A stretch of 64,000 nt of DNA from Gemmatimonadaceae bacterium (GTDB lineage Bacteria > Gemmatimonadota > Gemmatimonadetes > Gemmatimonadales > Gemmatimonadaceae): NCBI GenBank assembly GCA_035569435.1, contig DATMNB010000195.1, positions 4,894-68,893 on the forward strand, read 5' to 3'. A program made the position numbers and the translations under genes. Each line of letters opens with the position of its first letter. Within the stretch, counting starts at the first letter, position 1. Shown in pieces: positions 9,686 through 56,043 of the stretch. The notes beneath the pieces are model-generated. The model did no database searches, had not been told where the DNA came from, and saw nothing but the letters and a program-made list of their open reading frames with translations.

Positions 9686-9704
9686 ATGGTCAGGACGACC
9701 GCCG

Positions 9705-26295: not shown

Positions 26296-26359
26296 AATGC
26301 CAACAGCAAAATGCCGGGTCGAGGCGCGCGTCGCCACCTCACGCGCTGGCGCGCGTGAG

Positions 26360-36193: not shown

Positions 36194-37221
36194 GACCCGG
36201 CTCTTGCCGCGAGTGCCTCGAGGCACTGTGCCATGAGCGGCCACGGGCCGATCGTGATGCGAATGCCGTCCGGATATCCGCGAACGCCGATCCCGCGCGC
36301 GCACAGCGCCGTCACGATTCCCGCGCTCGGCTGCGACGTGTGCGCGAACACAAAGTTGCCAAACGACGGCACCACCCGAACCCCCGGGATCGCCGCCAGC
36401 GCCTGCTCGAACCGCCGGCGGTTGGCAACCGCCTCTGCGACGTGCTCGGCCACCCACTCCCGATCTTCCGTGAGCGCCGCATACGCGGCCTGCTCAGCGA
36501 CCACGTTCACCTTGTACGGCCCTCTCGACTTCTCCACCTCGGCGATCAGCGCCGGCGCCGCGGCGCCGTACCCGATCCGAAGCCCTGCCAGCCCAAACGC
36601 CTTCGACATGGTGCGCGTGATCAAGAGCCGGTCCGACCGCGCCAGCAGGTCGACCGACGACACGCCGGCAAACTCGGCATATGCCTCGTCGATCATGACG
36701 ACCCCCGGCGCGTCGGCGACAACTCGCTCGATCGTCGCGCGCGAGACGAGCGTGCCCGTGGGATTGTTGGGCGAGCAGAGATACATGATCCGCGCGCCCG
36801 TCGCGAGCAGCCCGTCAGCATCGGCGTCGTAGTCGGCCGTGAGCGGCACCGGCACCGCCACCAGCCCATTCATGCGCGCGAACGTCGAAGCCATCGGGAA
36901 CGTCGGATCGAGATACGCAAACCGCTCCCCGGGATCGGCGAACGCGCGAATGGCCGAATCAATCACATCGTCGGAGCCGCACCCCGTGACGATCATCTCG
37001 GGCTCGACGCCGAGATAGTCGGCCAGCACGCCCTTGAGCCCGCGGGCGTAGACGTTGGGATACTTTGTCGCGCCCGTCGCCGCCGCCTGCGCCGCGGCCC
37101 GGGCGGCCGGTGGCATCCCCCACAAGTTCGTGTTGTCGCTCAGATCGATCGCGCATCGCTCCCGCTCGGTGCCATAGAGGGCGATGTCGCGATACACCGC
37201 CCGCCCGGTCATGGGCGTCAT
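36190..37221 (-). CDS. hisC: histidinol-phosphate aminotransferase
   Basis: 343 aa. Class II aminotransferase with NPNNPTG, the PLP Lys in TMSKAFGLAGLRIGY, and IRITIG. ATG at 37221 overlaps the hisD stop (ATGA). Confidence 0.9.
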   Translation of the reverse strand: MTPMTGRAVYRDIALYGTERERCAIDLSDNTNLWGMPPAARAAAQAAATGATKYPNVYARGLKGVLADYLGVEPEMIVTGCGSDDVIDSAIRAFADPGERFAYLDPTFPMASTFARMNGLVAVPVPLTADYDADADGLLATGARIMYLCSPNNPTGTLVSRATIERVVADAPGVVMIDEAYAEFAGVSSVDLLARSDRLLITRTMSKAFGLAGLRIGYGAAAPALIAEVEKSRGPYKVNVVAEQAAYAALTEDREWVAEHVAEAVANRRRFEQALAAIPGVRVVPSFGNFVFAHTSQPSAGIVTALCARGIGVRGYPDGIRITIGPWPLMAQCLEALAARAGS

Positions 37222-38519
37222 GTGTCACCCCACGCCGCGGCCGCGGCAGCGTGCGCCGGGAGATGTTCGGCGGTGGCGAACGCCGCCGCGTCGGCCGCCA
37301 ACCGCCCGGCCGCCACTCGATCGACGCGCTGATACGTCGTCCACCGCACGAAATCCATCGTCGATAACCCTGAATACGACCGCGCCAGGCCGCCAGTCGG
37401 CAGCACGTGGTTCGCGCCCGTGAGATAATCCCCAAAGACCACCGAGCTCGTCTCCCCGAAGAATACCGTCCCGACATTACGAACCCCGGCGAACGCACCC
37501 GCAGGATCGGCGATCGCCAGCAACAGGTGCTCGGGCGCCCACTCGTTCACGAGCGCGATGGCTTCGTCGACCGACTGCGCCACGAGCAGTGCGCCTCGTG
37601 TCGCCAACGACTCGGCGATGATCACGTGTCTGGGCTGGGCAACCGCAAGTGTTTCAATGGCATTGGCAATCCGCCGGGCCACTGCCGCCCCGATCGCCAC
37701 GACGACCACCGCCGCCTGCGGGTCGTGCTCGGCTTGGGCCATGACCTCCCGCGCCACGATCTCCGGATCAGCCGCGCGGTCCGCCACGACGAGCAACTCG
37801 CTCGGGCCCGCCGGCGAGTCGATCCCCACGACGCTCGCCACCTGCAACTTGGCCTCGGCCACATACGCGTTGCCCGGCCCCACGATCCGGTCCACGCGTG
37901 GAATGGTTCGCGTCCCATAGGCCATCGCCGCGATCGCGCCGGCGCCACCGACCGCGAACACCCGATCGACGCCGGCCAGCTCGGCCGCCGCGAGAATCAC
38001 CGGCGCGGGCTCACCAGGCTGCGTCGGCGGAGAACACACAATGACCTCGCCGACCCCCGCCACGCGCGCCGGGATCGCGCCCATGAGCAGACTGCTCGGA
38101 TAGGTCGCCCGCCCACCGGGCGCATACACGCCGACCCGCCCAATCGGATCGGGCCGCCGCCCGACCATCACGCCGGGCTCGGTCTCGATCTCCATCGCCT
38201 CCGGCAGGAACGCCCCATGCGCGGCGCGCAGGTTGCGCGCGCTCCGCTCCATGGCGAGGCGCAGCGCGGGTGGGATCGTGCTGAGCGCGGCACGCCACCG
38301 CTCGCGCGGGATCTCGATCGACGGCAGCGTTACCCCATCCAACTCGCGGGCGAGCTCGGCCAGCGCGCTGTCCCCGGCATCGCGCACGCGCGCAATGACC
38401 GCCGTGGTCGCACATCTCACCACATCGATATCCGCGGCACCAGCACGACAATACAGCGCGGCCCGATCCGCGGGACTGAGCGCGGCGATCGCCCCCGTAA
38501 ACCGAAAGATCCCGCTCAC
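37218..38519 (-). CDS. hisD: histidinol dehydrogenase
   Basis: GTG at 38519 overlaps the hisG stop (GTGA). VGVYAPGG.A.YPSS, QAEHD and GDY..G.NHVLPT motifs. 433 aa; the track ORF is over-extended by 150 codons. Confidence 0.95.
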   Translation of the reverse strand: MSGIFRFTGAIAALSPADRAALYCRAGAADIDVVRCATTAVIARVRDAGDSALAELARELDGVTLPSIEIPRERWRAALSTIPPALRLAMERSARNLRAAHGAFLPEAMEIETEPGVMVGRRPDPIGRVGVYAPGGRATYPSSLLMGAIPARVAGVGEVIVCSPPTQPGEPAPVILAAAELAGVDRVFAVGGAGAIAAMAYGTRTIPRVDRIVGPGNAYVAEAKLQVASVVGIDSPAGPSELLVVADRAADPEIVAREVMAQAEHDPQAAVVVVAIGAAVARRIANAIETLAVAQPRHVIIAESLATRGALLVAQSVDEAIALVNEWAPEHLLLAIADPAGAFAGVRNVGTVFFGETSSVVFGDYLTGANHVLPTGGLARSYSGLSTMDFVRWTTYQRVDRVAAGRLAADAAAFATAEHLPAHAAAAAAWGDT

Positions 38520-39367
38520 GGCATCAACCGTTCGATGCGCGTGACGAGAATGCCCTCGGCGCCGAGCGCCTTGAGGCCCGCGATCGTGCGATAGACCGTG
38601 TTGGATGCAACGACCGCGTGGACAGCGACCATCGTCCCGCCGTTCAAGACATCGATGACGGTGGGTCCATTGAGCCCCGGCAACACCGCGGTCACGCGAT
38701 CGAGCGCATGACGCGGCACGTTGGCCATGAGATAGCGCGTCCCACGCGCGCGGAGCACGGAGGCCAGGGCAGTGACCAGGTCGTTCAGACCGGTCGTGCC
38801 CGGCGCGGCGACGAGTCGGGCCGTCGACTCGAGCACGGTGGTGATCTCGCGCAGCCCATTGACCTTGAGCGTCGAGCCCGTCGATGTCAGATCGACGACG
38901 ATGTCGGCGATCCCCAAGTGCGGCGCGACCTCGCAGGCGCCGGAGACCGGGACAATGGTCGCCGGGCATCCGGCGTCCTCGAAGAACCGATGCGTGAGGC
39001 GTGGGAACACAGTTGCGACACGAAACGGCGTCGGGGCCGCTTGCAGGTCGGCGAACGACGTGACTGCGCTCTCCTCGTGTGCGGCGACGACGAGCCGGCA
39101 GGCACCGAACTCGAGGTCAAGCAGCGTGTCGAGCTCGCGCTGCGATTCGGCCACGAGATCCCAGCCGGTCACACCCGCGTGCGCGGCACCGTCCGCGACG
39201 AACTCGGGGATGTCCTGCGCCCGGACGAAGATGGCCTCGAACTCGCCGCCGAGCGATGCAGTGAGCGCTCGATCGCCGCGCGAGCGCACACCAAGTCCCG
39301 CATCCTCGAAGAGGCCGCGTGTGTCGTCGGCCAGACGGCCTTTGTTTGGCAATGCAATGCGTAGCAT
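38516..39367 (-). CDS. hisG: ATP phosphoribosyltransferase, long form
   Basis: 283 aa. MLRIALPNKGRL, DIVVDLTSTGSTLK..GL, and a C-terminal regulatory domain, so a HisZ-independent type is expected. Confidence 0.95.
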   Translation of the reverse strand: MLRIALPNKGRLADDTRGLFEDAGLGVRSRGDRALTASLGGEFEAIFVRAQDIPEFVADGAAHAGVTGWDLVAESQRELDTLLDLEFGACRLVVAAHEESAVTSFADLQAAPTPFRVATVFPRLTHRFFEDAGCPATIVPVSGACEVAPHLGIADIVVDLTSTGSTLKVNGLREITTVLESTARLVAAPGTTGLNDLVTALASVLRARGTRYLMANVPRHALDRVTAVLPGLNGPTVIDVLNGGTMVAVHAVVASNTVYRTIAGLKALGAEGILVTRIERLMP

Positions 39368-39526: not shown

Positions 39527-39633
39527 GAGCCCAACCTAAGGTGATGTGGGCAGATTGCCAAGGCCGTCCTGAGCGAATACGTTGATCGGGACTCCTGAGT
39601 GAATTGGCACTGACGATTTGGAGGCTTTTTCGT

Positions 39634-40167
39634 ATGCGGATCTACCAGCTGACCCTCGCGACAGGCATGATGGCACTCGCCGCCTGCAGCGGCGGTGACA
39701 AAGGTGCGAGCGGTGGCAGCATGATGAGGGACACGACTTCAGCGCCGGCAGCAGCGCCCAAGGACACGACGGCGGCAGCGGCGGCGCCAGCAGCAGGGGC
39801 AGCGCCGGCGGCAGCAGCGGCGGCGATCACGGGTAAGACCGTGACGGTGAACATGATCGGCGACGCCAAGGGCTATCGCTTCGAGCCGGCGACGATCACG
39901 CTCAAAGTCGGCGATGGGATCAAGTTTGTGAACGTGACGGGCGGCCCGCACAACGTGACGTTCTGGGCCGATAGCATCCCGGCTGGTGCGGCCGCCGCGC
40001 TCGGCGCCAACATGCCGAACACGACGTCGCCGTTGACGGGCCCGCTCCTGATCGCGCCCAACGACACGTACACGGTGTCGTTTGCTGGGACCAAGGCGGG
40101 GTCGTACAAGTTCTACTGCACGCCGCACCTGGCACTCGGCATGAAGGGTTCGATTACGGTTCAGTAG
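39634..40167 (+). CDS. lipoprotein cupredoxin (plastocyanin/pseudoazurin-like type 1 copper protein), copy A
   Basis: ATG at 39634 with a GGAGG SD at 39620. Lipobox-like MALAAC|SGG, then an Ala/Thr-rich linker, then a cupredoxin domain with ligand candidates GGPHNV (His) and YCTPHLALGM (Cys, His, Met). Confidence 0.85.
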   Translation: MRIYQLTLATGMMALAACSGGDKGASGGSMMRDTTSAPAAAPKDTTAAAAAPAAGAAPAAAAAAITGKTVTVNMIGDAKGYRFEPATITLKVGDGIKFVNVTGGPHNVTFWADSIPAGAAAALGANMPNTTSPLTGPLLIAPNDTYTVSFAGTKAGSYKFYCTPHLALGMKGSITVQ

Positions 40168-42344: not shown

Positions 42345-42905
42345 CTACTGCACCGTGATCTTCGCAATCATGCCGAGCGCCAGGTGTGGCGTGCAGTAGT
42401 AGTGGTACGTCCCCGCCGGCGCTCCCGCGAACGACACGATGTACGTCTGATTGGGGGTCACGAGGAGTGGCCCCGAGAGCGGTGATGTCGTCCCGGGCAT
42501 GGCCTTCCCGAGGACCGCTGCTGCCCCCGAGGGAATGCTGTCCGACCAGAAGGTCACGTTGTGCGGTCCACCCGTGGCGTTCACCCATTTCACTCCGTCC
42601 CCTGCCTTGAGCGTGATCGTGGCCGGCTCGAACCGATATCCCTTCGCATCGCCGACCATCTGCACCGAGACTGTCTTGCCAGTGATCGCCGGCGCCACAT
42701 CGCCGGCGGCGGTACTGGTGCTGTTGGCCGGCGCCGCGGCCGTGGTCGTCGGCGCCGCCGGTGTCGTGGTCGACGTAGACGCGCCCGCGGCCGACGCTGC
42801 CTTCGCGCTCGCAGCCGCATCGTCCCCGGTCGACGTACATCCGGCGCCGGCGAACAGCCCCGCCGCGGCTGCTGCGGCGATGAGTCCAGTGTAATAGCGA
42901 GTCAT
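42345..42905 (-). CDS. lipoprotein cupredoxin, copy B (paralog of 39634..40167)
   Basis: ATG at 42905 (MTRYYTGLIAAAAAAGLFAGAGC...). Ala/Thr/Ser-rich linker, then a cupredoxin domain about three-quarters identical by eye to copy A, including GGPHNVTFW and YCTPHLALGM and the same ...ITVQ end. Confidence 0.85.
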   Translation of the reverse strand: MTRYYTGLIAAAAAAGLFAGAGCTSTGDDAAASAKAASAAGASTSTTTPAAPTTTAAAPANSTSTAAGDVAPAITGKTVSVQMVGDAKGYRFEPATITLKAGDGVKWVNATGGPHNVTFWSDSIPSGAAAVLGKAMPGTTSPLSGPLLVTPNQTYIVSFAGAPAGTYHYYCTPHLALGMIAKITVQ

Positions 42906-44523: not shown

Positions 44524-45219
44524 TCAGCTGTAGCGGAACGCGTCCAGGCACGCCTGGAGGCGCGGCACGGTATCATCGACCGTGGGCACCCGCAGCCCGA
44601 TCGCATGGTCCGGCCAGCGGATGATCACGACGCGCGGCGCACGCCGCGTGATCCGTCGCCCGAGCCACGTGCGTGGCAGCGAGCGCACGTGCAGTGTCAC
44701 TTCGCGAATCGGCCCGATGTCGACCGCCGGCGGCTTGCCCGTCGGCGCCGGTCGCTTCCGTTCCCACCAACGTGGTGTCCCAGCGGCCCGCGCCTGAAAG
44801 CGGAGCCCAGCGGCGCCCACGTACAGCACACCGGCCAGCGTGAGTCGCGGCGCGACGATCGCGCTGCATGGCAGCCGCCACTCGTAGCCCGCCCGCTCAG
44901 GCGGTCCCGGCACGAGACGCGGATCGCCCGCGTAGAGCGCATCGGCCAGCCGCTCTTGCCGCTTCCGCCGGCCGCGCACGGTGAACCGACTCACGAGGAG
45001 CCCATTCAACGCACCGCCCCAGATCGCGAACGCCGCCGCGACGAGCGCACTGCTCCGCCACGCCTCGCCGTGCAACGTCCAATCGACGTTGAGCACAAAC
45101 CACGTGATGCCAAATCCCACGCCATATACCGCGAACAAATAGCGCGGCCACCCGTCCCAGAACCCCGTATCATCGACTGAGTACGCCGCGCGCGGCACCA
45201 GGTTTTGCATCATCCTCAT
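44524..45219 (-). CDS. hypothetical membrane protein (two TM helices plus a basic soluble domain, possibly PH/GRAM-like)
   Basis: 231 aa with ATG at 45219. TM helices YLFAVYGVGFGITWFVLNV and ALVAAAFAIWGGALNGLLV, followed by an Arg-rich soluble region. First gene downstream of mcr on the same strand. Confidence 0.45.
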   Translation of the reverse strand: MRMMQNLVPRAAYSVDDTGFWDGWPRYLFAVYGVGFGITWFVLNVDWTLHGEAWRSSALVAAAFAIWGGALNGLLVSRFTVRGRRKRQERLADALYAGDPRLVPGPPERAGYEWRLPCSAIVAPRLTLAGVLYVGAAGLRFQARAAGTPRWWERKRPAPTGKPPAVDIGPIREVTLHVRSLPRTWLGRRITRRAPRVVIIRWPDHAIGLRVPTVDDTVPRLQACLDAFRYS

Positions 45220-45297: not shown

Positions 45298-48200
45298 TCA
45301 CACCGTGATGGCCATCCCACGATAGATGCGTGAGCGATAACGGCTTTCGTCCTCGCCCACAATCGGCGCGCTCTCCAGCAGCACCGCGCGCGCGAATCGT
45401 TCCAGCTCCTCGGCTGTTTCCGCGGCGTTCTGCGGCTCCTCGACGCGGGCGCGGCGCGTGAGGTTGATCTGATTCACGGGCACCCCGTGAATCAACCGCT
45501 CGTTCTCGACGCCGAGCGTCGCCGTGAGCGCGTGCAGCGTCGTCTTCATGACGTTGGCCAGGGCAAACGCCTCGGGCGATGCCCCCGCCGGCACATCGGG
45601 CGCGACGAGGACGAGCCGCACGTCATCGAGTAACGACACCTTGCGGGCGACCCGGAAGTGGTGCGTCACGTTGCCTTCGACGAGCTCGCGAAACTCCGCC
45701 GAGTCGAGTCGCGACTCGCCATCGGCATCGAACAGGACGTCAGGCAGCGCCGTGAAGGGCGTGGAGATGACGGCCGCCGGATGCCCCCACGCGGCGAGCG
45801 CGGCGTCCATGCCTTCTTCGATCTCCCCTTCTACGACAAGAGTCTCGATCCGACTGCCATCAACGAGCGACCGCACGACCGCTTGCGCCGCGCCCGCCGT
45901 GCGCGTGAGCAACACCACGCGGGCCACGTCGCACTGGGCGATGAACGCCGCCGCCGCGCGGGCCATGTGTGGGACCAAGTGCTCGCCGATCACCCAGACC
46001 GTCGTGTCGCGCATGGCATCCAGCCGGACGCGCTTGGCCCCGCCAAACAACTCGCGCTCGGTGACCGATCGTTCCAGGTGCAACCCGCCCGATGGCTGGA
46101 ACGTCTCGCCCGAGACCGCGCGGTCGGCCATGAAGTAGACCGCCGCCAGCGCCACCTCCATCTCGGTTGGCATCTTGCGGAGGTGCAGCATGGAGAGCAC
46201 GCCCTTGCGCACTTTGTCCGCCTCGCGCGCGATGTCGGTCGCGGAGAAGAACGGCTCCGGCGGCGCCGCCACCTGCATCGTGTGCGAGGCCACGAGGTAC
46301 CCACCGAGCCGGAGCCGGCCCACGAGCTTGGCGGCGATCTCGGATGTCATGAGGAACCGCTCGCACGATGGCCCATCGTGAACCGGGCCGACCCGCCGGT
46401 CGATCGCCACCGCGAGCGCGCGGAGCGGCGCCGGCATCTCGGTCGCGTGCGCCACAGTCCCGACATCGTTGGAGCAGAGCGCATCGAGCGCCGCGCTCGC
46501 GCTCACGCCGGCGCGGATGGACTCGATGACCGCCGCATACACGGCGTTGAGTCGCCGATTCTCGAGAATGAGCTTGCCCCGCCGCTGAAAGAGGCCGGGT
46601 TTCCCGCCGGTCCCGCGCAGCCGGTCCCCATCGACCGGCCCCGGCGAGATGGCGTTGATCTGAATCTCCGGCCCGAGAAATCGCGCCAGGTTCTCGACCA
46701 GCGCCCGCTGCCCGGCCTTGGACACCGCGTAGTCCGCGCGGTTGGGGTACGGGACCGCGACGTACTTTTCCCCGCCGAAGTACGACGACACGTTGACGAT
46801 ATAGCCCGACCCCTGGCGCTTCATGCGGGGCGCCAGCATCCGAATCAACGAGTAGTTGGAGATGAGATTGGCGTCGAGCGTCGCCCGCCACGCGTCGACC
46901 GGCATATCGACGACCATCTCCTCGGCGCCCGCCACGCCGGCGTTGTTGATCAGGTAGTCCACGCGCCCAAACACGCGGAGCGTCTCCTCGGCCGCCTGCT
47001 CGAGCGACGCGTCATTGGCGACATCGACCCCCGCCACATACCGCACGCGATCGCCGGCCGCATAATACCCGATCTCGATCAACTCATCGACGATCCGCTC
47101 CCGCATCTCCGCCAACTGCGCCTCGCCGCGCGCCACGAGCATCACGCGCGCGCCGGCCACAGCCAGCAAGCGCGCGATCTGTCCGCCGATGCCCGCCGAT
47201 GCGCCGGTGACGAGGGCGACCTTGCCCAGATGGATGCCCATGAGGCTTTCCATCCAGCCAAACGTCGCGCGCCGCGCGCCGGTGGCTTCGGCGATGGAGT
47301 CGGGGAGGTAGAGATTCACCTGACGAATGCGGCGCGGGCTGTAGAGCAGTCGCGCCGCCTGCCCGGCGGCAAACGGGAGCGCCTCGGCTTCGTGGTTGCT
47401 CCAACGAATGATCTGGTTCCCCCACTCGACCCAGCGCCGCGTCCCGGCGCGCACCTGCTCCGCGGTCTCATCGCGCCAGACGCGGATCAACTCCTCGGTG
47501 GCGGCGCGCAACAGATCGCCGTAGGCGTTGCCCATGCCATCGTCGCCGTTGCTCATGAAGATCGTGCGGGGGTTGAGCCGCAGCTGATCGCCCCGCGCCG
47601 CCCAGTACCGCGTCAACGCGCGGGCGATCGCCAGCGCGCCCGTGAGCTCGCCCTCGATGAAATCGTTGAGATCGGCATCGCTGACTTCCGAGAGTGGGGC
47701 CCAGAAGCGGTCAGGCCCGAACGCGGGCAGGATGATCGCACCGCCGATGGTCAGTTGCGTGGCGTCGAGCGCGGGGCCAAGGGTCTCGGGCTTGGTGCGG
47801 TCGAACCGGATGGGGTGGATGCGGCTGTCGCTCCCCGGGATATTGCCTTTGGTACTGCCGGAGGTTTCGAGCGCGTCGATGGCGGTCCGCACCTCGAGGT
47901 CGGTGGAGAAGCCGAGGATGACGCTCGCGCCGCAGCGGGCCTGGACACGGGCCACGGCGAGCGCGTCGCCGACCTGTTCGCCCGCCGCCACGAGCACGGC
48001 CGCATCGGCCGCGTCGACCGTGCGGAGGGCCGGCCGCGACACCCAGGTGCTGCGACTCTCCTGGCGCACGGTCATGCCGTGCGTGATCTCAAAGTTGTGT
48101 CCGTTGATCGCGGCCGACTCATCGGAGCCGAGAAACACGATCATCGCCGCGACATCGCCGACCGTGGGGCACCTGCGCTCAGGCGGCAGGCCATCACGCA

Positions 48201-48906
48201 CGCGGGCCAGGGTCATCATCCCAAAGAAATCCGAGGCGGTCGTCCCGTTTGCTGCGCCTCGCAGCGCATCCATCGATTTGAACACCGACCGAATGCGCTC
48301 GCTCTCGATCGGCCCCGGGAACACGGTGTTGACGCGGATGCCACGGGGCCCAAGCTGTCCGGCGAGTTGGCGCGACAGGGCGTTGAGCGCGGCTTTGGGG
48401 ATCACGTAGGCGGCGCGCCCGTAGTACTGGGTGCGCGAGAAGATCGTCGAGACGTTGATCACCGACGCCCCGGGCGCCAGGTGCGGGGTCGCGGCGCGCA
48501 CGGCGTTCCAACTCACGCCCAGAATGTTGCGCGCGGCGTCGGCGACGGTCTCGCCGTCGATCTCGGCGCGCGAGAACGGGAGTTGCGCGATGGGCGCCCG
48601 CGGGCCGGCCGAGCCCGCGTTGTTGACCAGAATATCGAGGCGGCCGCAGTCGGCCAGCGCGTGAGCGATGCCGGTCCGCGTGGCCGCCGGGTCGCCGCCA
48701 TCAAACGCCACCACGAACGCCCGTTGGGCCGGCGCCTCCGTCTCGGCGAGCAGGCGCCGGCGGGCGAGATCGAGCTTGGCCGCCGTGCGGCCGGCCATGA
48801 CGATGGTCGCGCCTTCGGTGAGATAGCGGCGGCAGATCTCGACGCCGATGTTGCCGGCGGCCCCAGTGATCAGAGCGACCTTGCCACTCAACCGGCCGGT
48901 GGTCAT
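45298..48906 (-). CDS. mcr: bifunctional malonyl-CoA reductase (malonyl-CoA -> malonate semialdehyde -> 3-hydroxypropionate), Chloroflexus type
   Basis: 1202 aa from ATG 48906 (MTTGRLSGKVALITGAAGNIG...). Colinear by eye with C. aurantiacus Mcr as I remember it: DILVNNAGSAGP, VINVSTIFSR..YYGR..YV.PKAALNALS, GIRVNT.FPGPIES.RIR.VF. A second SDR module reads HLGKVALVTGASAGIGGQIARLLA..GARVML.AR, YLINNAG.AG.EEMV.DMP...W, NVSSYFGGEKY.A.PYPNRADYAVSKAGQRA, PEIQINAI.PGPV.GDRLRGTG. The C-terminus is ...RIYRGMAITV. The start overlaps the pcs stop (ATGA). Confidence 0.9.
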   Translation of the reverse strand: MTTGRLSGKVALITGAAGNIGVEICRRYLTEGATIVMAGRTAAKLDLARRRLLAETEAPAQRAFVVAFDGGDPAATRTGIAHALADCGRLDILVNNAGSAGPRAPIAQLPFSRAEIDGETVADAARNILGVSWNAVRAATPHLAPGASVINVSTIFSRTQYYGRAAYVIPKAALNALSRQLAGQLGPRGIRVNTVFPGPIESERIRSVFKSMDALRGAANGTTASDFFGMMTLARVRDGLPPERRCPTVGDVAAMIVFLGSDESAAINGHNFEITHGMTVRQESRSTWVSRPALRTVDAADAAVLVAAGEQVGDALAVARVQARCGASVILGFSTDLEVRTAIDALETSGSTKGNIPGSDSRIHPIRFDRTKPETLGPALDATQLTIGGAIILPAFGPDRFWAPLSEVSDADLNDFIEGELTGALAIARALTRYWAARGDQLRLNPRTIFMSNGDDGMGNAYGDLLRAATEELIRVWRDETAEQVRAGTRRWVEWGNQIIRWSNHEAEALPFAAGQAARLLYSPRRIRQVNLYLPDSIAEATGARRATFGWMESLMGIHLGKVALVTGASAGIGGQIARLLAVAGARVMLVARGEAQLAEMRERIVDELIEIGYYAAGDRVRYVAGVDVANDASLEQAAEETLRVFGRVDYLINNAGVAGAEEMVVDMPVDAWRATLDANLISNYSLIRMLAPRMKRQGSGYIVNVSSYFGGEKYVAVPYPNRADYAVSKAGQRALVENLARFLGPEIQINAISPGPVDGDRLRGTGGKPGLFQRRGKLILENRRLNAVYAAVIESIRAGVSASAALDALCSNDVGTVAHATEMPAPLRALAVAIDRRVGPVHDGPSCERFLMTSEIAAKLVGRLRLGGYLVASHTMQVAAPPEPFFSATDIAREADKVRKGVLSMLHLRKMPTEMEVALAAVYFMADRAVSGETFQPSGGLHLERSVTERELFGGAKRVRLDAMRDTTVWVIGEHLVPHMARAAAAFIAQCDVARVVLLTRTAGAAQAVVRSLVDGSRIETLVVEGEIEEGMDAALAAWGHPAAVISTPFTALPDVLFDADGESRLDSAEFRELVEGNVTHHFRVARKVSLLDDVRLVLVAPDVPAGASPEAFALANVMKTTLHALTATLGVENERLIHGVPVNQINLTRRARVEEPQNAAETAEELERFARAVLLESAPIVGEDESRYRSRIYRGMAITV

Positions 48907-51900
48907 TGCGCGGCCCACGCTTCGAGCAGCTCGGTCTTGGTGCGCAGGCCCAGCACGGGGAGCGCGTGGTTGCAGACGTAGCTCGCCCCCGCGTGCCGAT
49001 TCTCCCACATCGCCTGGTGGGCGCCGGGCATGTCGTGCCAGGCGACGACCACGGGCTCGGTGACGTCGAGCAGGCCCGCGTCGACCATCTGGTTCATGCG
49101 CACGACTTCGTAGGCGTTGGAGAGGTGCGTGCCGAGGATCGTCGCCGTTGGCATGAAGATCCGGCGCTGGCGCATCCAGACCTGCGGCGCGTGGAAGGCG
49201 TAGCGGCGGCCGCCCATGTCCTCGACGTAGACGACGCGGCCTGTGAACGGTTTGACGAGCGAGGTTGATGCGCCGAGGGCGTCGTGGCCGGCGCGTTCAA
49301 CGATGAGGTCGGGGTAGCCGCGCGGGTTGTCCGGGGACCGGAGGAGTTTGCCGATCGCGGCGCCCAGCGGCTTCATCGTGCGGTCCTGGAAGGCGCGGAC
49401 GGCCTCGCGGTGGGCGTCGGTGTCGGTCTTGGGGTCGGGGAGCGGGGGCATCGTCGACGGCCAGTCAAAGTCGTCGCCCTCGCGGCGGTGGAGTCCCGCG
49501 AGGGACACGACGCCGCGGACGGCCTCGCCAAAGCCCAGGGATTGGACGAACTCGCGTTGGGCGTCGGTGTAGGTGACGACGACGATGCGGGCGTGTGCTG
49601 CGCGGGCGGCCTCGATGCATTCCAGGCCGACGAGGTCGACGAGCGACGACTCCGTGGTCGCGGTGCCGTAGTAGATGAGGACGGCCTCGTTGGGCTGGAG
49701 GCCCGCGCGTCGCAACATTGTCGCTGGCGGTACCGTTCCAGGCTTGCCCACGAAGGTGAAGTAGTACCCCGACGTCGCACCGTAGAACGTGAGCGTGCCC
49801 CCGAGTTCCAGCAGCTGGAACGAACGTGGGAACGCGGTCTCGCCCGCGTGCGACACGACGTAGTCAGCGAGTCTTCCCCCATTTCTGGCCCGGAACTCAT
49901 CGGCCAATACCGTACCAGCCCCCTCCCAGTTTGCGGCATCATCAAGGGGTACAGCGCGAAACACATTCGCAAAGCGCGGGTCCCGCCGGTTGATCGCCGC
50001 ACTCGCGCCTTGCGACTCGATGAAGGCCGCGCGCTCCGCCGACGAAACGAGGCCGACGACCGAGAGACCGGCGCGGGCCGCGCTCTTCACGGCTTCGAGC
50101 CCGGTCCCGGTGGCCGCGCCTTCGACAAACACGGTCTTGCCGGGCTCAATGGCGAGCGTGGTGAACAACGCCCGCACGACGGTCCCCAGGTTCAGGACGT
50201 AGGAGCCCGCGGCTTCCAGCGTGAGATCTTGCGGGATCGGAAAGAGCTGCGGCCCCTGGACCTTCACGAACTGCTGATGCGACCCGTCGGGCGTCTCGTA
50301 ACCCTGGATGTGAAAATCAGCGAACATCGGGTCGCGGGCGGCGAGCGGTGAGAGCACGTCGCTCTGCCCCGAGTAGATCGTCACCAGATCGCCGACACGA
50401 AGCCGCCCCTCGGCTTTGACCTCCGACCCGAGTGCGGCGATGAGACCAACCCCGCCCGAGCCCGTGACGTGCGCGTCGGCGTCATGGACATCGAACTGCG
50501 ACACCGGGATCCCCGTGATCGCCCAGATGTCGTTGTAGTTGACCTCCGACGCCAACACGTACACGAGCGCCTCGTTTGGCCCGGGCAACTCCACCGGGAG
50601 CACCACCTGGCGCTCGGCCACCGCGGGGTCGCCGTGCCGTGGCGCACCCGTCTCGGGATCGCGCACCGCCGCAAACGCGTACTGATAGCGTGGGATCGGC
50701 GTGTGGCCCGGGAAGAATGGCGACCCGATCGGTAGCATGTCGTCTGCCACGACGGCGCGGCGGGTCGGCAGCGGCGCGCTCCGCTTGTCGAGAAACGCCC
50801 GGATGCCGGCCTTCCCCTCCTCGGGATCGACGACGGCACGCGCGAAGAGCTCGGCTTCGTGCCGGAGCCCGGCATCGAGTCCATGCGTCAGCCCAAACTG
50901 TACGGCATCGAGCGCCCGCTCGACGGCCAACGACCGACCCGCGTACGCCGCCTGGCGAATGAGGCGCTCGATCTCAGGGTCATCCAGGACGGCGTGCAGT
51001 GTCGCGTTGCTCGGGGTTTGCCAGGTCGCGACCTGTTCGCGGCGGCGGGCCAGTGCCTCGACCAGGGCGCCAGTGCCATCGACGACAAACTGCCGCGCGA
51101 GCATCGACGCAACGCTCACCACGTCGTCGCTGTGCTCGGCCAACCGATCGATCACGCCGAGGGCGTGCGCGTCGGGCGCGGTGACCGTGCGTCCGCCGAT
51201 GATGATCTCCACCGCGTGTCGGAGCCCCGCGACGCCCAGCTGGTCGCTGAGGAGCCGCGGGAGGCGCTGCGTGCCCCCATAGCCCGGGAGGAGCCGAAGC
51301 CGAATCTCCGGTTGGCCAAAGAGAGCCGTTGGCTCGGCGACCCGATAGTGACAGGCCAACGCGAACTCCAATCCCCCGCCCAGCGCCACGCCGTTGATCG
51401 CCGCGATCCACGGCTTGGCGCTGCGCTCGATCTTGCGGAACGCCAGATGGGCGTTGTTGGGCAACGGGAGCGCTTCCTCGAGCGTGGTCGCCTCATCGAG
51501 CAACTGGCGGATGTCGGCGCCAGCGACGAACGATGACGTGCCATCGCCGGTCACGATCACCGCCCGCACGTCATCGCGGCGACTCAGGTGCTCGACGACG
51601 GTATTGAGCTCGTCGAGCGCCCGCTCGTTGAGGGCGTTGACGGGAGGGTTCGTCACCGTGACCGTCGCCACGCGTACGTTGGGCGTCACGACATTGTACT
51701 GCACGCGAAAGTACCGGTAACTCTGGAGCAGCCGTTGCTCCTCACTCACGCGTTGTCGCGCGCGCCAGCTCTCGATCGCGACGCGGAGCTCCGTCAGACT
51801 CTCGGGGTTCTTGAGCGTCGTGGCATCGCCGACCGGCTGGTCTTCGACGAGCGCGCGGACCATGCGGCGCATGTACTTGCCGCTCCGCGTCTCGGGAAAC

Positions 51901-54194
51901 TGCGAGACCTCGATAAAGTCCGACGGCACGGCCACGGCGCCTTTCTCCTGTCGCACCAACTCGGCGAGCCGGCGCCGATCCTCCACGGTCAGGCGTCGCG
52001 ACGTTTTCACGAACGCGATGGGCGTCAATCCCTTCTCGCGGTGCGGCGCGCCGACGACCACGACATTGCCGACCGGCGAGTCGGGATTGACCTGCTTGTC
52101 CCGCAGGATCGCGCCTTCAATCTCTTCGGTCCCCATGCGATGGCCGGAGACGTTGATCACGTCGTCACTCCGGCCGTGGAGGCTAAAGCTGCCGTCCTCG
52201 TACTGGACGGCGAAATCGCCCTGCGTGTAGACCAATGCGCCCGGCCACCGTTGCCAGTACGTCTTGGCGTACCGCGCGTCATCGCCCCAGATGGTCCGCG
52301 CAAGGTACGGGTAGGGCGCCAGGATGACGATCTCGCCTTTTTCCCCCGGCGCCGCCGACCGGCCCTCGGCATTCCACACGTCGCCGATCACCCACGGCAG
52401 CGGGTACGTGTGCCCATCCGCCCGCAGCGGGAAATCGGCATTCCCATAGAAGTGCGTCCAGGCGATCCCGCCGTGCTCGGTGGCCCAGTAGGAGTTGGTA
52501 TACTGGGGCGTCACCAACTCCATGCCATACTGCTGCACCGCCGGCGACACCGGCTCGGCGCAGAACGTCGCCACGCGCAGCGACGAGAGATCGTACTGTC
52601 GCACGTCGAGCTCATTCTGGGCGTCCTGCATGACCGTCTTGAGAAAGGTCACGCCGGCCTTGAAGATCGTCACGCCGTAGCGCTCGATGATTGAGGCGAA
52701 CCGCCCGGCCGAGGGGAAGACGGGCGCGCACTCGGCGATGACCGTCGTGACGCGCGTGGTGAGTGCCGCCGAGATCATGTAGCTCTGCCCGGTAATCCAC
52801 CCCGGGTCGGCGATCACGTACATCACGTCGCCGGGATGGGCATCGAAGGCCACGCGCATGGTGTGGGCGATGCCGGCGACCCACCCGCCGTGGACGTGCA
52901 CGACACCCTTGGGTTTCCCCGTCGAACCGGACGTGTAGATGAAGAACAGCGGACACTCGGCGTCGACGGGCACCGGGCGCGACGTCGCCCAGATTGCCGC
53001 CACGAACTCGCGGTCGGGGAGCGCCAGGAGCTCGGCTTCGGTCACCACGTGCACGCCCGCTGCCTGCGCGCGAGACAGCAGGGTCGCGGCCGCCTGCTCG
53101 GTCAACTCGTGGCTCCAGCGATCGCGCTCCGGCCGCCAGAGCAACTCGGGCTGCGCGGTGTGCCGCACGACGACTACTGCCTCGACGCGCGGCGGCGACT
53201 CGACGAGGGCCTGGGCGACCGCCGTGCGGATGCGACTCGCGTGCGCCGCGTCGAGGCCCATCTCGTCGAGCGCGCGGCCGATGCCGCGCATGACGTCACG
53301 GCGTTCCAGGGTGATCTCATCGGCCACGGCCGCGCGCGCCGAAGCGACGAGTCGCTCCGCATCGACATCGAGCGCCAGTAACCGATCGCGGACCAGCGCG
53401 AGCGCCGTCTCGACGGGCACGTAGTTGTCGAGCGCCGGGTCGGTGTACGCCTCCTTGAACGGCACGATCTGCGCGTTCCGATACCCGCCGTCCGCCGTAA
53501 TGATCACGCGCGCGCCGGCGTCGTGGATCCGGTCGCTCAGCGTCTTGTCCGAGAACCCGCCAAAGACGGGCGTGTAGACGATACCGAGTCGCTTGGCGGC
53601 CTCGGTATAGTAGATCTGCTCCGGGATGTTGGGCATGTTGAGCGCGATCCGGTCGCCGCGCCGGAGCCCGAGCGATTCGAGGGCCAGGGCCGCCTTGGCT
53701 GTCTCCCAGAGGAGCTGCTTGCGCGTGACGGGATACGCCTCGACCGGCCCACCGCGGCCGCCGTCCTGCGACTGGTCCCAGCGATCGCCCTCGACCAGGA
53801 GGGCCGTCTCATCGCCGTGGCCGGCGAGCACGTGCCGGTCGACCTCGTTGAAGGCCGCGTTGGTCAGGGCACCGCTGAACCACCGATAGAACGGCGCGTC
53901 GTCGGCGTCGAACGCCCGCGTCCACGGCGTGTGATCGGCGCCGTACGGCGCGCGCACCGGCGCGCCGGTGCGCGCATCGTATCCGGTCCACGCCTGCGCG
54001 GCATCGTCCCACGTGATCCAGGCGCCCAACGTCGGATCAAACCAGTGGATCTCACGCGCGGCGATCCTGCCGTGAAACGCGCCCGGATCTTGGGCACACG
54101 CAGCTCGTGCCCTCTCCCAGTCCGCGCGCGTGCGGATCGGGTTGACGCTCGGCTTGACGGGGTGGGTGGGGCGCGCCGACGCTCGTGTCGCCAT
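48903..54194 (-). CDS. pcs: trifunctional propionyl-CoA synthase (3-hydroxypropionyl-CoA synthetase / dehydratase / acryloyl-CoA reductase), Chloroflexus type
   Basis: 1763 aa with ATG at 54194. Domain order: an AMP-forming acyl-CoA synthetase (FFIYTSGSTGKPKGVVHVHGG, SGHRMGTEEIEGAILRD, ETRSGKYMRR); an enoyl-CoA hydratase (VATVTVTNPPVNALNERALDEL...SFVAGADIRQL...AAINGVALGGGLEFALACHYRVA); and an MDR enoyl reductase (VLASEVNYNDIWA, VEGAATGTGLEAVKSAARAGL, HQAMWENRH). Colinear by eye with C. aurantiacus Pcs. Confidence 0.9.
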   Translation of the reverse strand: MATRASARPTHPVKPSVNPIRTRADWERARAACAQDPGAFHGRIAAREIHWFDPTLGAWITWDDAAQAWTGYDARTGAPVRAPYGADHTPWTRAFDADDAPFYRWFSGALTNAAFNEVDRHVLAGHGDETALLVEGDRWDQSQDGGRGGPVEAYPVTRKQLLWETAKAALALESLGLRRGDRIALNMPNIPEQIYYTEAAKRLGIVYTPVFGGFSDKTLSDRIHDAGARVIITADGGYRNAQIVPFKEAYTDPALDNYVPVETALALVRDRLLALDVDAERLVASARAAVADEITLERRDVMRGIGRALDEMGLDAAHASRIRTAVAQALVESPPRVEAVVVVRHTAQPELLWRPERDRWSHELTEQAAATLLSRAQAAGVHVVTEAELLALPDREFVAAIWATSRPVPVDAECPLFFIYTSGSTGKPKGVVHVHGGWVAGIAHTMRVAFDAHPGDVMYVIADPGWITGQSYMISAALTTRVTTVIAECAPVFPSAGRFASIIERYGVTIFKAGVTFLKTVMQDAQNELDVRQYDLSSLRVATFCAEPVSPAVQQYGMELVTPQYTNSYWATEHGGIAWTHFYGNADFPLRADGHTYPLPWVIGDVWNAEGRSAAPGEKGEIVILAPYPYLARTIWGDDARYAKTYWQRWPGALVYTQGDFAVQYEDGSFSLHGRSDDVINVSGHRMGTEEIEGAILRDKQVNPDSPVGNVVVVGAPHREKGLTPIAFVKTSRRLTVEDRRRLAELVRQEKGAVAVPSDFIEVSQFPETRSGKYMRRMVRALVEDQPVGDATTLKNPESLTELRVAIESWRARQRVSEEQRLLQSYRYFRVQYNVVTPNVRVATVTVTNPPVNALNERALDELNTVVEHLSRRDDVRAVIVTGDGTSSFVAGADIRQLLDEATTLEEALPLPNNAHLAFRKIERSAKPWIAAINGVALGGGLEFALACHYRVAEPTALFGQPEIRLRLLPGYGGTQRLPRLLSDQLGVAGLRHAVEIIIGGRTVTAPDAHALGVIDRLAEHSDDVVSVASMLARQFVVDGTGALVEALARRREQVATWQTPSNATLHAVLDDPEIERLIRQAAYAGRSLAVERALDAVQFGLTHGLDAGLRHEAELFARAVVDPEEGKAGIRAFLDKRSAPLPTRRAVVADDMLPIGSPFFPGHTPIPRYQYAFAAVRDPETGAPRHGDPAVAERQVVLPVELPGPNEALVYVLASEVNYNDIWAITGIPVSQFDVHDADAHVTGSGGVGLIAALGSEVKAEGRLRVGDLVTIYSGQSDVLSPLAARDPMFADFHIQGYETPDGSHQQFVKVQGPQLFPIPQDLTLEAAGSYVLNLGTVVRALFTTLAIEPGKTVFVEGAATGTGLEAVKSAARAGLSVVGLVSSAERAAFIESQGASAAINRRDPRFANVFRAVPLDDAANWEGAGTVLADEFRARNGGRLADYVVSHAGETAFPRSFQLLELGGTLTFYGATSGYYFTFVGKPGTVPPATMLRRAGLQPNEAVLIYYGTATTESSLVDLVGLECIEAARAAHARIVVVTYTDAQREFVQSLGFGEAVRGVVSLAGLHRREGDDFDWPSTMPPLPDPKTDTDAHREAVRAFQDRTMKPLGAAIGKLLRSPDNPRGYPDLIVERAGHDALGASTSLVKPFTGRVVYVEDMGGRRYAFHAPQVWMRQRRIFMPTATILGTHLSNAYEVVRMNQMVDAGLLDVTEPVVVAWHDMPGAHQAMWENRHAGASYVCNHALPVLGLRTKTELLEAWAAQ

Positions 54195-54203
54195 TTAGAA
54201 ATA

Positions 54204-54695
54204 CTACGCGATGGCGCGTTCGTCGTATGGGGCCTTGGCCGCGCCCAGCCGCTGGCGCAACCGCGCGGCGTCGTCCGGCGTCGCGTGCATGACGATGGAG
54301 AACCCGCGCGCCGGCCGGTCCCAGGGCTCACCGTCGGTGACCGGCGTCGTCCATGTCCGGCGCGCGTTGGCCAGGAGCTCGATCCAGGCCGCGAAGGCCG
54401 GCTCGCTCGCCGGCGTCGAGAGCACGTGCGCGGCATCCTGGATCACGAGGACATACCGGTTGGCCGGCAGCCACTCGAGATCGGTCAGGCACTCGTCGAG
54501 GGCCGCCAGGTTCTCACCGAAGTAGTACGGGAACTGGAGCGCCGCCGCGATCTCGTCATAGAAGCCGGGCGGCTCGGTCATCTTGCGGCCGCGCAGCACG
54601 CGGACGGCGGCTTCGACGTCCTCGCGCGCGGTCGCCCAGGCCCAGTCGGTGAGCGTCGATGCGTCGGAAATCACCAGCGTGAACGGCGCGGTCAT
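54204..54695 (-). CDS. barstar-family ribonuclease inhibitor
   Basis: 163 aa. The FPYYFGENLAALDECLTDLEWL motif is typical of barstar (PF01337-like). ATG at 54695 overlaps the RNase stop (ATGA). The stop lies 9 nt before the pcs ATG. Confidence 0.75.
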   Translation of the reverse strand: MTAPFTLVISDASTLTDWAWATAREDVEAAVRVLRGRKMTEPPGFYDEIAAALQFPYYFGENLAALDECLTDLEWLPANRYVLVIQDAAHVLSTPASEPAFAAWIELLANARRTWTTPVTDGEPWDRPARGFSIVMHATPDDAARLRQRLGAAKAPYDERAIA

Positions 54696-55057
54696 GGTGG
54701 GGTGTCAGGGGTCATGCGGATGAACGTCCGATAGTGGTCGGGCGTGAAGTAGGCGCTGCCGTCGGTGCCGGTGATCAACCGCTCGGCGCCGCGATTGACG
54801 CCGCGCACCCATGGGTGCACGTCCCATTCCTGGTAGCGGATCGGGGAGCCGTCGGCCGCCACGCGCGGGAGCGTGGCACCGCCGTCTCGTCCATCGTCGA
54901 AGAACCGTGTGCCGCCCCGATAGCCCGCTGGGGCGCGGCCGGTCTGCCGGATGGCGGTGAGCGTCGATCGCGCGTAGTCGGGCACTGCCGTCGTGGTATG
55001 ATCGGCGGCAATGCAGGCCGTCATCAGGCCAAACAGCAGGAGCGCGCGCATGATCAT
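54692..55057 (-). CDS. secreted guanyl-specific ribonuclease (RNase Sa/barnase/N1-T1 superfamily)
   Basis: ATG at 55057 (MIMRALLLFGLMTACIAADH..., signal or lipoprotein-like). C-terminal YQEWDVHP...NRGAERLITGTDGSAYFTPDHYRTF matches the RNase Sa catalytic Glu/Arg/His pattern (Y.E[YW].V.P......RG..R......G..Y[YF]T.DHY.TF). The start overlaps the adh stop (ATGA). Confidence 0.8.
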   Translation of the reverse strand: MIMRALLLFGLMTACIAADHTTTAVPDYARSTLTAIRQTGRAPAGYRGGTRFFDDGRDGGATLPRVAADGSPIRYQEWDVHPWVRGVNRGAERLITGTDGSAYFTPDHYRTFIRMTPDTPP

Positions 55058-56043
55058 CGAGACGGGATGAGCACCGCGGCCCCTGTGAGGCGACCGGAGC
55101 GGAGATCCGCCAACGCGCGGTTCGCGTGCGCGAGCGGGTACGTCGTGATCCGCGTGCGCACCGGGACCGTGGGTGCGACGGAGAGAAACGCGCTCGCGTC
55201 CTGTCGCGTGAGGTTGGCGACCGAGCGCACGCTGCGTTCTTCCCACAGGATGTCGTACGGAAAGGCTGGGATGTCACTCATGTGAATCCCGGCGCACACG
55301 ACCGTGCCGCCGCGATCGACGGCCCGGAGCGCCGTCGGGACGAGCGCGCCGACGGGGGCGAAGATGATCGCGGCGTCGAGCGGTTCCGGCGGAGCACTAT
55401 CGGACCCGCCCGCCCACTCGGCGCCGAGCGACAGGGCAAAGGCCTGCGCCGCATCATCGCCCGGGCGCGTGAACGCAAAGACGCGGCGGCCCTCGGCGAC
55501 CGCGACCTGCGCGATCAGGTGCGCCGACGCGCCAAAGCCGTAGAGGCCGAGTCGGTGCGCGTGGCCCGCGGCTTGGAGCGAGCGAAAGCCGATGAGGCCG
55601 GCGCACAGGAGCGGCGTGGCCTCGGCGTCGGCGTAGCCGTCGGGGATGGCGACGCAGTACCGCTCGTCGGCGACCGTGCAGTCCGCGTAGCCTCCGTTCA
55701 CATGGTAACCGGTGAATCGGGCGGCCGTGCACAGGTTCTCGCGGCCACTCTGACAATAGACGCAGGTCTGATCGGTCCAGGCCAGCCAGGGGACGCCGAC
55801 GCGGGCGCCGATGTCGAACCGCGTCGCGTCGGGTCCGCGCGCCTCGACGCGTCCGACGATTTCGTGGCCGGGGATGAGCGGGAGTTTGGGGTCGTCCAAC
55901 TCGCCGTCGACGATGTGCAGATCGGTGCGGCACACGCCACAGGCGGCGACCCGGATCAGGAGCTGCCGGGGGCCGGGGATGGGGGTGGGCACTTCGGTAA
56001 ACCGAAGCGCGTGCTTGGGCGCATCGAGCAGCATCGCATGCAC
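55054..56043 (-). CDS. zinc-dependent alcohol dehydrogenase (MDR family)
   Basis: 329 aa. ACGVCRTDLHIVDGE...PLIPGHEIVGRV (catalytic Zn) and the structural Zn Cys cluster C.YC.SG.ENLC. Start is GTG 56043 or ATG 56034. Confidence 0.85.
   Translation of the reverse strand: MHAMLLDAPKHALRFTEVPTPIPGPRQLLIRVAACGVCRTDLHIVDGELDDPKLPLIPGHEIVGRVEARGPDATRFDIGARVGVPWLAWTDQTCVYCQSGRENLCTAARFTGYHVNGGYADCTVADERYCVAIPDGYADAEATPLLCAGLIGFRSLQAAGHAHRLGLYGFGASAHLIAQVAVAEGRRVFAFTRPGDDAAQAFALSLGAEWAGGSDSAPPEPLDAAIIFAPVGALVPTALRAVDRGGTVVCAGIHMSDIPAFPYDILWEERSVRSVANLTRQDASAFLSVAPTVPVRTRITTYPLAHANRALADLRSGRLTGAAVLIPSR

Follow-up and report, generated by a model that had tools for sequence, protein, structure and literature searches.

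The stretch of DNA analysed here, a 64,000-nucleotide window from a Gemmatimonadaceae bacterium (assembly GCA_035569435.1, contig DATMNB010000195.1), carries two long genes, pcs and mcr, which are predicted to encode a propionyl-coenzyme A (CoA) synthase (Pcs) and a malonyl-CoA reductase (Mcr). The 3-hydroxypropionate bi-cycle has these two as its signature enzymes, and their role outside the Chloroflexota has been a standing question since such genes came to notice in aerobic phototrophic proteobacteria. An earlier interpretation of the window, made from its letters without database searches (the sequence-only reading), had placed two open reading frames (ORFs) at the coordinates given below without naming their strand. 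Our reading confirms both ORFs and assigns them to the minus strand:

48903..54194, minus strand: pcs, predicted trifunctional propionyl-CoA synthase of 1763 aa with an ATG start (Pfam domain order, alignment with PDB 6EQO, motifs)
45298..48906, minus strand: mcr, predicted bifunctional malonyl-CoA reductase of 1202 aa with four tandem domains of the short-chain dehydrogenase/reductase (SDR) family (alignment with PDB 8HI4, conserved residues)
48903..48906, minus strand: ATGA overlap of the pcs stop and the mcr start, an arrangement typical of translational coupling (reading of the sequence, alignment of the mcr start)

The overlap, which had already been described in the sequence-only reading, can be read directly from the junction gcgcaATGAcc, in which the pcs TGA occupies 48905..48903 and the mcr ATG 48906..48904, so that the two genes have 4 bases in common. 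The mechanically called mcr ORF extends further upstream to a GTG at 49008, and the ATG at 48906 yields the 1202-aa protein. This protein begins MTTGRLSGKVALITGAAGNIG, and its residue 2 pairs with residue 3 of the Roseiflexus Mcr in the 8HI4 alignment, which supports 48906 as the mcr start. A long antisense ORF on the plus strand (45658..48981) was set aside as an artefact of high GC, as its frame does not show the expected signature in third-position GC content (GC3). A promoter and terminator scan found no promoter-like site and terminator-like sites only at chance level, and tRNA and Rfam scans of the 64-kb window were both empty.

In Pcs, the Pfam domains follow each other in the order ACAS_N/AMP-binding/AMP-binding_C (residues 88–773), ECH_1 (841–1044) and ADH_N/ADH_zinc_N (1205–1475). 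This agrees with the succession of synthetase, hydratase and medium-chain dehydrogenase/reductase-type reductase proposed earlier. Searching Pcs against all PDB chains matched 6EQO (1850 aa) over query residues 21–1762 with 2403 bits, in two stretches that pair query 21–642 with chain residues 24–682 and query 636–1762 with chain residues 698–1841. The next-best matches covered single domains, with acetyl-CoA synthetases at ~330 bits and a crotonyl-CoA carboxylase/reductase at 190 bits. We take 6EQO, whose PDB title reads only 'acetyl-coenzyme A synthetase', to be the propionyl-CoA synthase of Erythrobacter sp. NAP1. The ligase part of the window protein contains YTSGSTGKPKG (420–430), GRSDDVINVSGHRMGTEEIE (674–693) and SGK (771–773), the crotonase part GGGLE (939–943) and QPE (961–963), and the reductase part GAATGTG (1359–1365). 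Based on general knowledge of these superfamilies, they presumably represent the adenylation motifs including the A10 lysine, both glutamates of the crotonase and the dinucleotide-binding glycines of the reductase, respectively. Pcs is predicted to combine 3-hydroxypropionate-CoA ligase, 3-hydroxypropionyl-CoA dehydratase and acrylyl-CoA reductase on one chain, the enzyme type listed under EC 6.2.1.36, 4.2.1.116 and 1.3.1.84.

Mcr is of the bifunctional Chloroflexus type, for which EC 1.2.1.75 and 1.1.1.298 are assigned, and Pfam recognises two adh_short stretches in it. The translation contains the motifs GKVALITGAAGNIG, YVIPK, GKVALVTGASAGIGG and YAVSK and the C-terminus RIYRGMAITV, all as previously quoted. 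The Roseiflexus castenholzii Mcr (8HI4) aligns with the window protein in one stretch, query 2–1202 against residues 3–1229, with 1238 bits, and 8HJW follows with 1164 bits. For the C-terminal half, the best match is Mcr-C of Porphyrobacter dokdonensis (6K8S, 819 bits). A structural study of the Roseiflexus enzyme (RfxMCR) identified residues that are needed according to mutagenesis or simulation (PMC10470521). Of the 14 RfxMCR residues taken from that study, 12 of which are essential or important by mutagenesis, all 14 are identical in the window Mcr:

RfxMCR T165/Y172/R175/Y178/K182, window T154/Y161/R164/Y167/K171: SDR1 alcohol-dehydrogenase site, Thr-Tyr-Lys triad plus YxxRxxY; the five window residues are located in VSTIFSRTQYYGRAAYVIPK
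RfxMCR S731/Y743/R746/Y749/K753, window S708/Y720/R723/Y726/K730: SDR3/ED/SDR4 CoA-acylating aldehyde-dehydrogenase site
RfxMCR R785, window R762
RfxMCR L795, window L772
RfxMCR R799, window R776
RfxMCR R1164, window R1137: like the three residues before it, part of the SDR3/ED/SDR4 site

The end-to-end colinearity with Mcr and Pcs that the sequence-only reading had proposed is therefore borne out by solved structures (8HI4, 1238 bits; 6EQO, 2403 bits). The similarity is full-length rather than domain-level only, and the Mcr residues and Pcs motifs are all intact. Judged by these alignments, the window ORFs are confirmed as genuine Pcs and Mcr orthologues with intact active sites. The database names of both proteins are less specific: Mcr is an exact match to NCBI HWZ59707.1, named only 'SDR family oxidoreductase', and Pcs to HWZ59708.1, named only 'AMP-binding protein'. 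NCBIfam holds no dedicated Mcr or Pcs model, and its best full-length ligase matches fall under the curated cut-offs, which accounts for the generic names. The KEGG-based annotation of the closest homologues at JGI is a K14468-type malonyl-CoA reductase. Two Mcr relatives, P0270 and P0271, proved not to be the Roseiflexus protein.

Both proteins originate from a 69,242-bp contig labelled 'MAG TPA: Gemmatimonadaceae bacterium', where MAG stands for metagenome-assembled genome. The named best matches of the MnmG gene on this contig (9705..11618) are exclusively Gemmatimonadaceae. The host is thus a Gemmatimonadaceae MAG, in line with the non-Chloroflexus context noted earlier, and the similar GC content reported for the flanks holds as well, being flat at ~0.69 over pair and flanks. 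The tetranucleotide distance of the pair to the rest of the window is 0.0089. Other segments of the same length average 0.0097, and 25 of the 38 deviate more than the pair does. The relative synonymous codon usage of the pair correlates with that of the pooled window genes at 0.97–0.98, and its GC3 is 0.87–0.88 versus 0.855 for the pooled genes. A recent horizontal transfer, which the sequence-only reading had suggested could be recognised by composition, is rejected, since neither tetranucleotide nor codon usage carries a signal of it.

The closest relatives on long contigs are the loci L082 (461 kb) and L083 (92 kb), in which Pcs is 79–80% and Mcr 76–78% identical to the window proteins; the MnmG of the L082 contig is 81% identical to that of the window. 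The window, L082 and L083 have a common gene order, ispG-...-Zn-ADH-pcs-mcr-HD-domain-DUF6992-cupredoxin-...-hisG hisD hisC, where Zn-ADH is a zinc-dependent alcohol dehydrogenase (ADH). Judging from this order, from MnmG and from the host-like composition, pcs-mcr is an old chromosomal resident of the window sub-lineage, vertically kept and fixed between ispG/ADH and the his operon.

To place the pair in a wider context, we compared it with homologous loci. At a threshold of E≤1e-50, the search for Mcr homologues returned 1109 proteins. An exhaustive search of representatives gave just 135 Mcr clusters at E≤1e-30, ~25 of them full length, which indicates a compact family. When one genome was scanned per GTDB species, 274 relatives emerged, and the best 80 of these 274 loci were examined. 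Approximately 15 of the 80 belong to Gemmatimonadaceae/Gemmatimonadales MAGs, and others to Sphingomonadales, Burkholderiales (Rubrivivax, Ideonella), Rhodospirillales, Acetobacteraceae, Caulobacterales, Parvularculaceae, Lysobacterales and one Polyangiaceae MAG. Every non-Chloroflexus locus with enough upstream DNA (70/70) has pcs immediately upstream of mcr and on the same strand. These 70 loci span Gemmatimonadota, Alpha-, Beta- and Gammaproteobacteria and Myxococcota, and their junctions range from an overlap to ~170 nt, mostly <150 nt, with start calls being approximate. The sequence-only reading had mentioned isolated pairs in 'a few' phototrophic proteobacteria; proteobacterial carriers do exist, but with 274 relatives, 70/70 adjacent loci and three phyla the spread had been understated. 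One carrier is cultured: the aerobic phototroph Gemmatimonas groenlandica TET16 (L001, CP053085.1, 1209484–1233236) has adjacent pcs-mcr genes, which adjoin lysine-biosynthesis (dap) genes. The pair is not mentioned in the species description of G. groenlandica or in three Gemmatimonadota genomics papers. The MAG ES-bin-51 (L007), listed as puf+/bch+ in the Gemmatimonadota literature, also has mcr. Bi-cycle marker genes in Gemmatimonadota as such have already been published (PMC9802188; bioRxiv 10.64898/2026.09.02.748891).

Trees were computed for 94 Mcr and 58 Pcs sequences by neighbour-joining only, with 50 bootstrap replicates and with Bdellovibrionota and Thermochlorobacter MAGs as named outgroup representatives. 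The window sequences fall inside a 90-sequence clade of gemmatimonad, proteobacterial and myxobacterial proteins with 100% bootstrap, and the window clade itself is also supported at 100%. The Mcr and Pcs trees show an identical major split, with 100% bootstrap in each. One side holds the window clade, G. groenlandica, Polyangiaceae, Acetobacteraceae, Caulobacteraceae and one Burkholderiales MAG (L026), joined in the Mcr tree by the Lysobacterales MAG L015, which is included in that tree alone. The other side comprises the main Gemmatimonadaceae MAG clade, Sphingomonadales, most Burkholderiales and Parvularculaceae. As both trees show the same supported split, pcs and mcr appear to travel together. 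We infer from these neighbour-joining trees that the cassette moved between phyla as a unit and that Gemmatimonadota acquired or exchanged it at least twice. An ancient transfer of the pair is implied by the gene trees.

The remaining genes of the bi-cycle were sought in the window by Pfam annotation of ~50 ORFs and by tblastn with C. aurantiacus Mcl (a query verified as 100% identical to PDB 4L7Z), Burkholderiales Mch and CoA-transferase seeds. Neither approach revealed any of mcl, mch, mct, meh, smt, acc and pcc or a mutase gene within the 64 kb, in agreement with what had been noticed before. Second-cycle genes are likewise missing from the 10 kb around the pair, in the window as well as in 18 further gemmatimonad loci. 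Among the Mcl homologues (at least 8000 at E≤1e-80), no gemmatimonad name occurs among the matches listed, all of which have at least 79% identity. The sequence-only reading had proceeded from the absence in 64 kb to a stand-alone module instead of a full cycle, a step that our comparison does not support. The C. aurantiacus genome has mcr (Caur_2614), pcs (Caur_0613) and the mcl/mch/mct cluster (Caur_0173-0180) at separate places (PMC3150298). From glacier forefield soil, two Gemmatimonadaceae MAGs were reported to hold every bi-cycle gene, among them a glyoxylate operon resembling that of Chloroflexus, whose Mcl and Mch share 78% and 73% identity, respectively, with their Chloroflexus counterparts (Garritano et al. 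2022). Moreover, a 2026 preprint that uses mcr and mcl as markers flags the Gemmatimonadota (bioRxiv 10.64898/2026.09.02.748891). Because Chloroflexus scatters these genes, the two MAGs have complete gene sets and the phylum is flagged, absence from 64 kb is weak evidence, and the stand-alone module is one possible reading of the pair.

Further indications come from the genes that adjoin the pair elsewhere. In 25 Sphingomonadales loci, mcr is directly followed by accA, the gene for the carboxyltransferase alpha subunit of acetyl-CoA carboxylase (NF004344, 440 bits with the cut-off at 357; for example L022, 12600..13535), a linkage with which a flux from acetyl-CoA via malonyl-CoA is consistent. 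In 9 Gemmatimonadota loci, an acyl-CoA thioesterase II gene (tesB) follows mcr, and the flanks of the main Gemmatimonadaceae MAG clade contain tesB and a penicillin-acylase-like gene. In the Burkholderiales loci L011 (13..4216) and L019 (14557..20532), genes for CoA-transferases, Mcl and mesaconyl-CoA hydratase adjoin pcs-mcr. The transferases belong to family III and are smtA/smtB/mct-like, with three in tandem in L019, and the Mcl of these loci is 81% identical to C. aurantiacus Mcl (4L7Z). By this annotation, both halves of the bi-cycle are physically linked outside the Chloroflexota.

When comparing the window with the Erythrobacter-type pair represented by 6EQO, the three-domain order of Pcs, the end-to-end alignment and the position of pcs directly upstream of mcr are all shared. 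The host phylum differs, being Gemmatimonadota in the window, and the window Pcs is ~90 residues shorter (1763 vs 1850 aa), part of which is a gap near 6EQO residues 683–697. The window also has no accA after mcr, unlike the 25 Sphingomonadales loci. With the Roseiflexus enzyme, the window Mcr shares four tandem SDRs, the catalytic triads, the YxxRxxY motifs, the malonyl-CoA-binding arginines and full-length alignment. Roseiflexus lives in hot springs as a filamentous anoxygenic phototroph. Whereas it is described as a photosynthetic green non-sulfur bacterium (PMC10470521), the window host is a high-GC member of the Gemmatimonadaceae. Gene arrangement also sets the systems apart, as mcr and pcs are unlinked in C. 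aurantiacus (Caur_2614, Caur_0613) and overlap in the window. Finally, autotrophy is proven in the Chloroflexota comparison system, whereas the window lineage is known here from its genes.

Closer to the window, G. groenlandica belongs to the same phylum, has adjacent pcs-mcr genes and clusters with the window clade in the Mcr and Pcs trees alike. Identities between the two are 61% for Mcr and 66% for Pcs, and the Mcr of the main MAG clade is ~59–60% identical to that of the window. The flanks distinguish these lineages, with dap genes in G. groenlandica, tesB and the penicillin-acylase-like gene in the main clade, and an upstream ADH, with or without barnase-barstar, in the window lineage. 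The Rubrivivax-like Burkholderiales loci L011 and L019 contain the same pcs-mcr unit, with Mcr 58–59% and Pcs ~65% identical to the window proteins. There, the pair is joined to smtA/smtB/mct-like transferases, Mcl and mesaconyl-CoA hydratase, none of which are present in the window.

The biochemical function of the pair can be proposed because both proteins are orthologous to characterised enzymes. The C-terminal half of Mcr (SDR3-ED-SDR4) would reduce malonyl-CoA to malonate semialdehyde with NADPH, and the N-terminal half (SDR1-SDR2) would convert malonate semialdehyde to 3-hydroxypropionate, bringing the consumption of Mcr to 2 NADPH. Pcs would then activate 3-hydroxypropionate with ATP and CoA to 3-hydroxypropionyl-CoA, dehydrate this to acrylyl-CoA and, with a third NADPH, reduce acrylyl-CoA to propionyl-CoA. 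The predicted net reaction leads from malonyl-CoA, 3 NADPH and ATP to propionyl-CoA. As to the physiological role, we favour a scenario in which the pair, together with a housekeeping acetyl-CoA carboxylase and a route from propionyl-CoA to succinyl-CoA, makes up the first half of the bi-cycle and is used mixotrophically; for this role we see the chances as roughly balanced. Such a half-cycle would amount to an NADPH-consuming assimilation of acetyl-CoA with co-fixation of bicarbonate and would not require obligate autotrophy. Taken as a whole, role included, a genuine and intact pcs-mcr operon on a Gemmatimonadaceae chromosome is the best explanation of the locus, and we consider it probable.

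Several observations weigh against this scenario. The function of gemmatimonad Pcs and Mcr is at present a prediction from the genes. The window is devoid of acc and pcc as well as of an epimerase or mutase gene, and the steps upstream and downstream of the pair are therefore assumed. In one survey of the Gemmatimonadota, complete gene sets for turning propionyl-CoA into succinyl-CoA were found just in soda-lake MAGs (PMC10581226); if this is valid for the window organism, the fate of propionyl-CoA is unclear. The genes listed for two Gemmatimonadaceae MAGs point to the full bi-cycle and not to a half (Garritano et al. 2022). In addition, no promoter-like site was found, and pcs is located 9 bp after a barstar gene.

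The strongest competing explanation is that the pair belongs to a full 3-hydroxypropionate bi-cycle whose other genes (mcl, mch, mct, meh, smtAB, pcc, epimerase, mutase) are located elsewhere in the genome. We regard this as possible but clearly less likely than the mixotrophic half-cycle. Where it applied, it would permit autotrophic or strongly mixotrophic CO2 fixation in the window organism, a prospect that we hold just as tentatively. The complete gene sets of the two Gemmatimonadaceae MAGs (Garritano et al. 2022) and the 2026 survey of mcr and mcl, which flags Gemmatimonadota, point in this direction. The scattering of the genes in Chloroflexus deprives their absence from 64 kb of much meaning, and L011 and L019 show that pcs-mcr can co-occur with second-cycle genes. 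However, neither the window nor any of 19 Gemmatimonadota loci carries a second-cycle gene closer than 10 kb to the pair. The gene lineage of the window differs from that of the main Gemmatimonadaceae MAG clade, and the two published MAGs may belong to another lineage than that of the window. Furthermore, autotrophic growth is not known from any gemmatimonad (PMC11316326), and in the 2026 survey the flagged genomes were not enriched in genes for phototrophy or chemolithotrophy.

An alternative that we judge improbable is that the pair mainly handles 3-hydroxypropionate or acrylate, for example from the breakdown of dimethylsulfoniopropionate (DMSP), beta-alanine or uracil, or that it acts as a redox valve. 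In that case, Pcs would detoxify acrylyl-CoA and make propionyl-CoA, with Mcr as an auxiliary enzyme or a pure redox valve, a division of labour that we find similarly hard to credit. In work of Bernhardsgrütter et al. from 2018, Pcs reportedly keeps the toxic acrylyl-CoA in a closed reaction chamber, which would suit such a function. The co-assimilation of such substrates by bi-cycle enzymes has been discussed for Chloroflexus and other MAGs, and an acyl-CoA thioesterase II gene after mcr in 9 Gemmatimonadota loci could be seen in the same light. However, the adjacency of the genes in 70/70 loci and accA in 25 loci argue for a flux of acetyl/malonyl-CoA via both enzymes and against Pcs being used by itself, and no transporter or DMSP/acrylate gene adjoins the pair in the window. 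That the ORFs are generic fusions of SDR or acyl-CoA ligase domains (polyketide-like, for instance) or decayed copies is barely conceivable and effectively refuted, for although the NCBI names are generic ('SDR family oxidoreductase', 'AMP-binding protein') and NCBIfam offers no specific model and only ligase matches below the curated cut-offs, full-length colinearity (1238 bits for Mcr, 2403 for Pcs), the conservation of all tested catalytic and substrate-binding residues, intact frames and host-like codon use stand against it.

The literature or the databases already contain the enzymes, the adjacent pair outside the Chloroflexota and its occurrence in Gemmatimonadota. The window adds an intact, vertically inherited carrier from a distinct gemmatimonad gene lineage and leaves knowledge of the pathway unchanged. 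Perhaps more useful than the window itself is the wider comparison, with a strict cassette in at least three phyla, the link to accA, the link to the glyoxylate branch and the cultivable G. groenlandica. The pair in this species makes CO2 co-fixation by abundant soil and freshwater bacteria experimentally approachable. A bolder proposal, which we think unlikely, is that the Gemmatimonadaceae lineage of the window, and perhaps G. groenlandica, runs a functional 3-hydroxypropionate-based CO2 assimilation as the full bi-cycle or a closed variant. If true, Gemmatimonadota would be the first phylum outside the Chloroflexota shown to use this kind of CO2 assimilation, and the pcs-mcr cassette, exchanged across phyla as a unit, would be a mobile 'entry ticket' to the pathway.

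Upstream of pcs, three genes on the same strand follow in close succession:

54204..54695, minus strand: barstar-family ribonuclease inhibitor (Pfam PF01337, E=6.6e-22), ending 9 bp before the pcs ATG
54692..55057, minus strand: barnase-family ribonuclease, start approximate (Pfam PF00545), overlapping barstar by 4 bp
55054..56043, minus strand: zinc-dependent alcohol dehydrogenase family gene (NCBIfam TIGR02822, 365 bits vs a cut-off of 283.5)

The window ADH is 74–75% identical to the ADH genes of L082 (3652..4665) and L083 (2692..3735). In the window, barnase and barstar separate ADH from pcs, as they do in L083, whose barnase as tblastn query gave 52% identity over window positions 54713..55042; they are absent in L082, where ADH abuts pcs. 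The two genes are probably a later inserted, variable passenger outside the pathway in an otherwise kept gene string. Since the L082 ADH overlaps the pcs start, this arrangement suggests an ancestral ADH-pcs-mcr operon in the window sub-lineage.

At the opposite end of the pair, directly after mcr, lies a 231-aa ORF (44524..45219, minus strand) with host-like GC3 and no Pfam or NCBIfam match. It is without counterpart in L082 and L083, in which an HD-domain gene is located 10–70 bp after mcr. Two genes for plastocyanin/azurin-type cupredoxins, at 39604..40167 on the plus strand and ~42348..42686 on the minus strand, stand on either side of a gene for a conserved 534-564-aa protein without assigned function, and the same arrangement is found in L083. 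The his operon (32236..39367, minus strand) comprises hisG, hisD, hisC, a glutamine amidotransferase, imidazoleglycerol-phosphate dehydratase, hisA/hisF, an inositol-monophosphatase-like gene and hisIE. L082 and L083 show hisG, hisD, hisC, the glutamine amidotransferase and hisA/hisF, where both loci end. Elsewhere in the window, two ORFs with coding-like GC3 have no Pfam match, one of 745 aa at 7658..9895 on the minus strand and one of 730 aa at 23165..25357 on the plus strand. The window also encodes two paralogous M13-family metallopeptidases (3614..5686, minus strand; 20379..22397, plus strand) and a pair of M16 peptidases at 25967..29139 on the plus strand.

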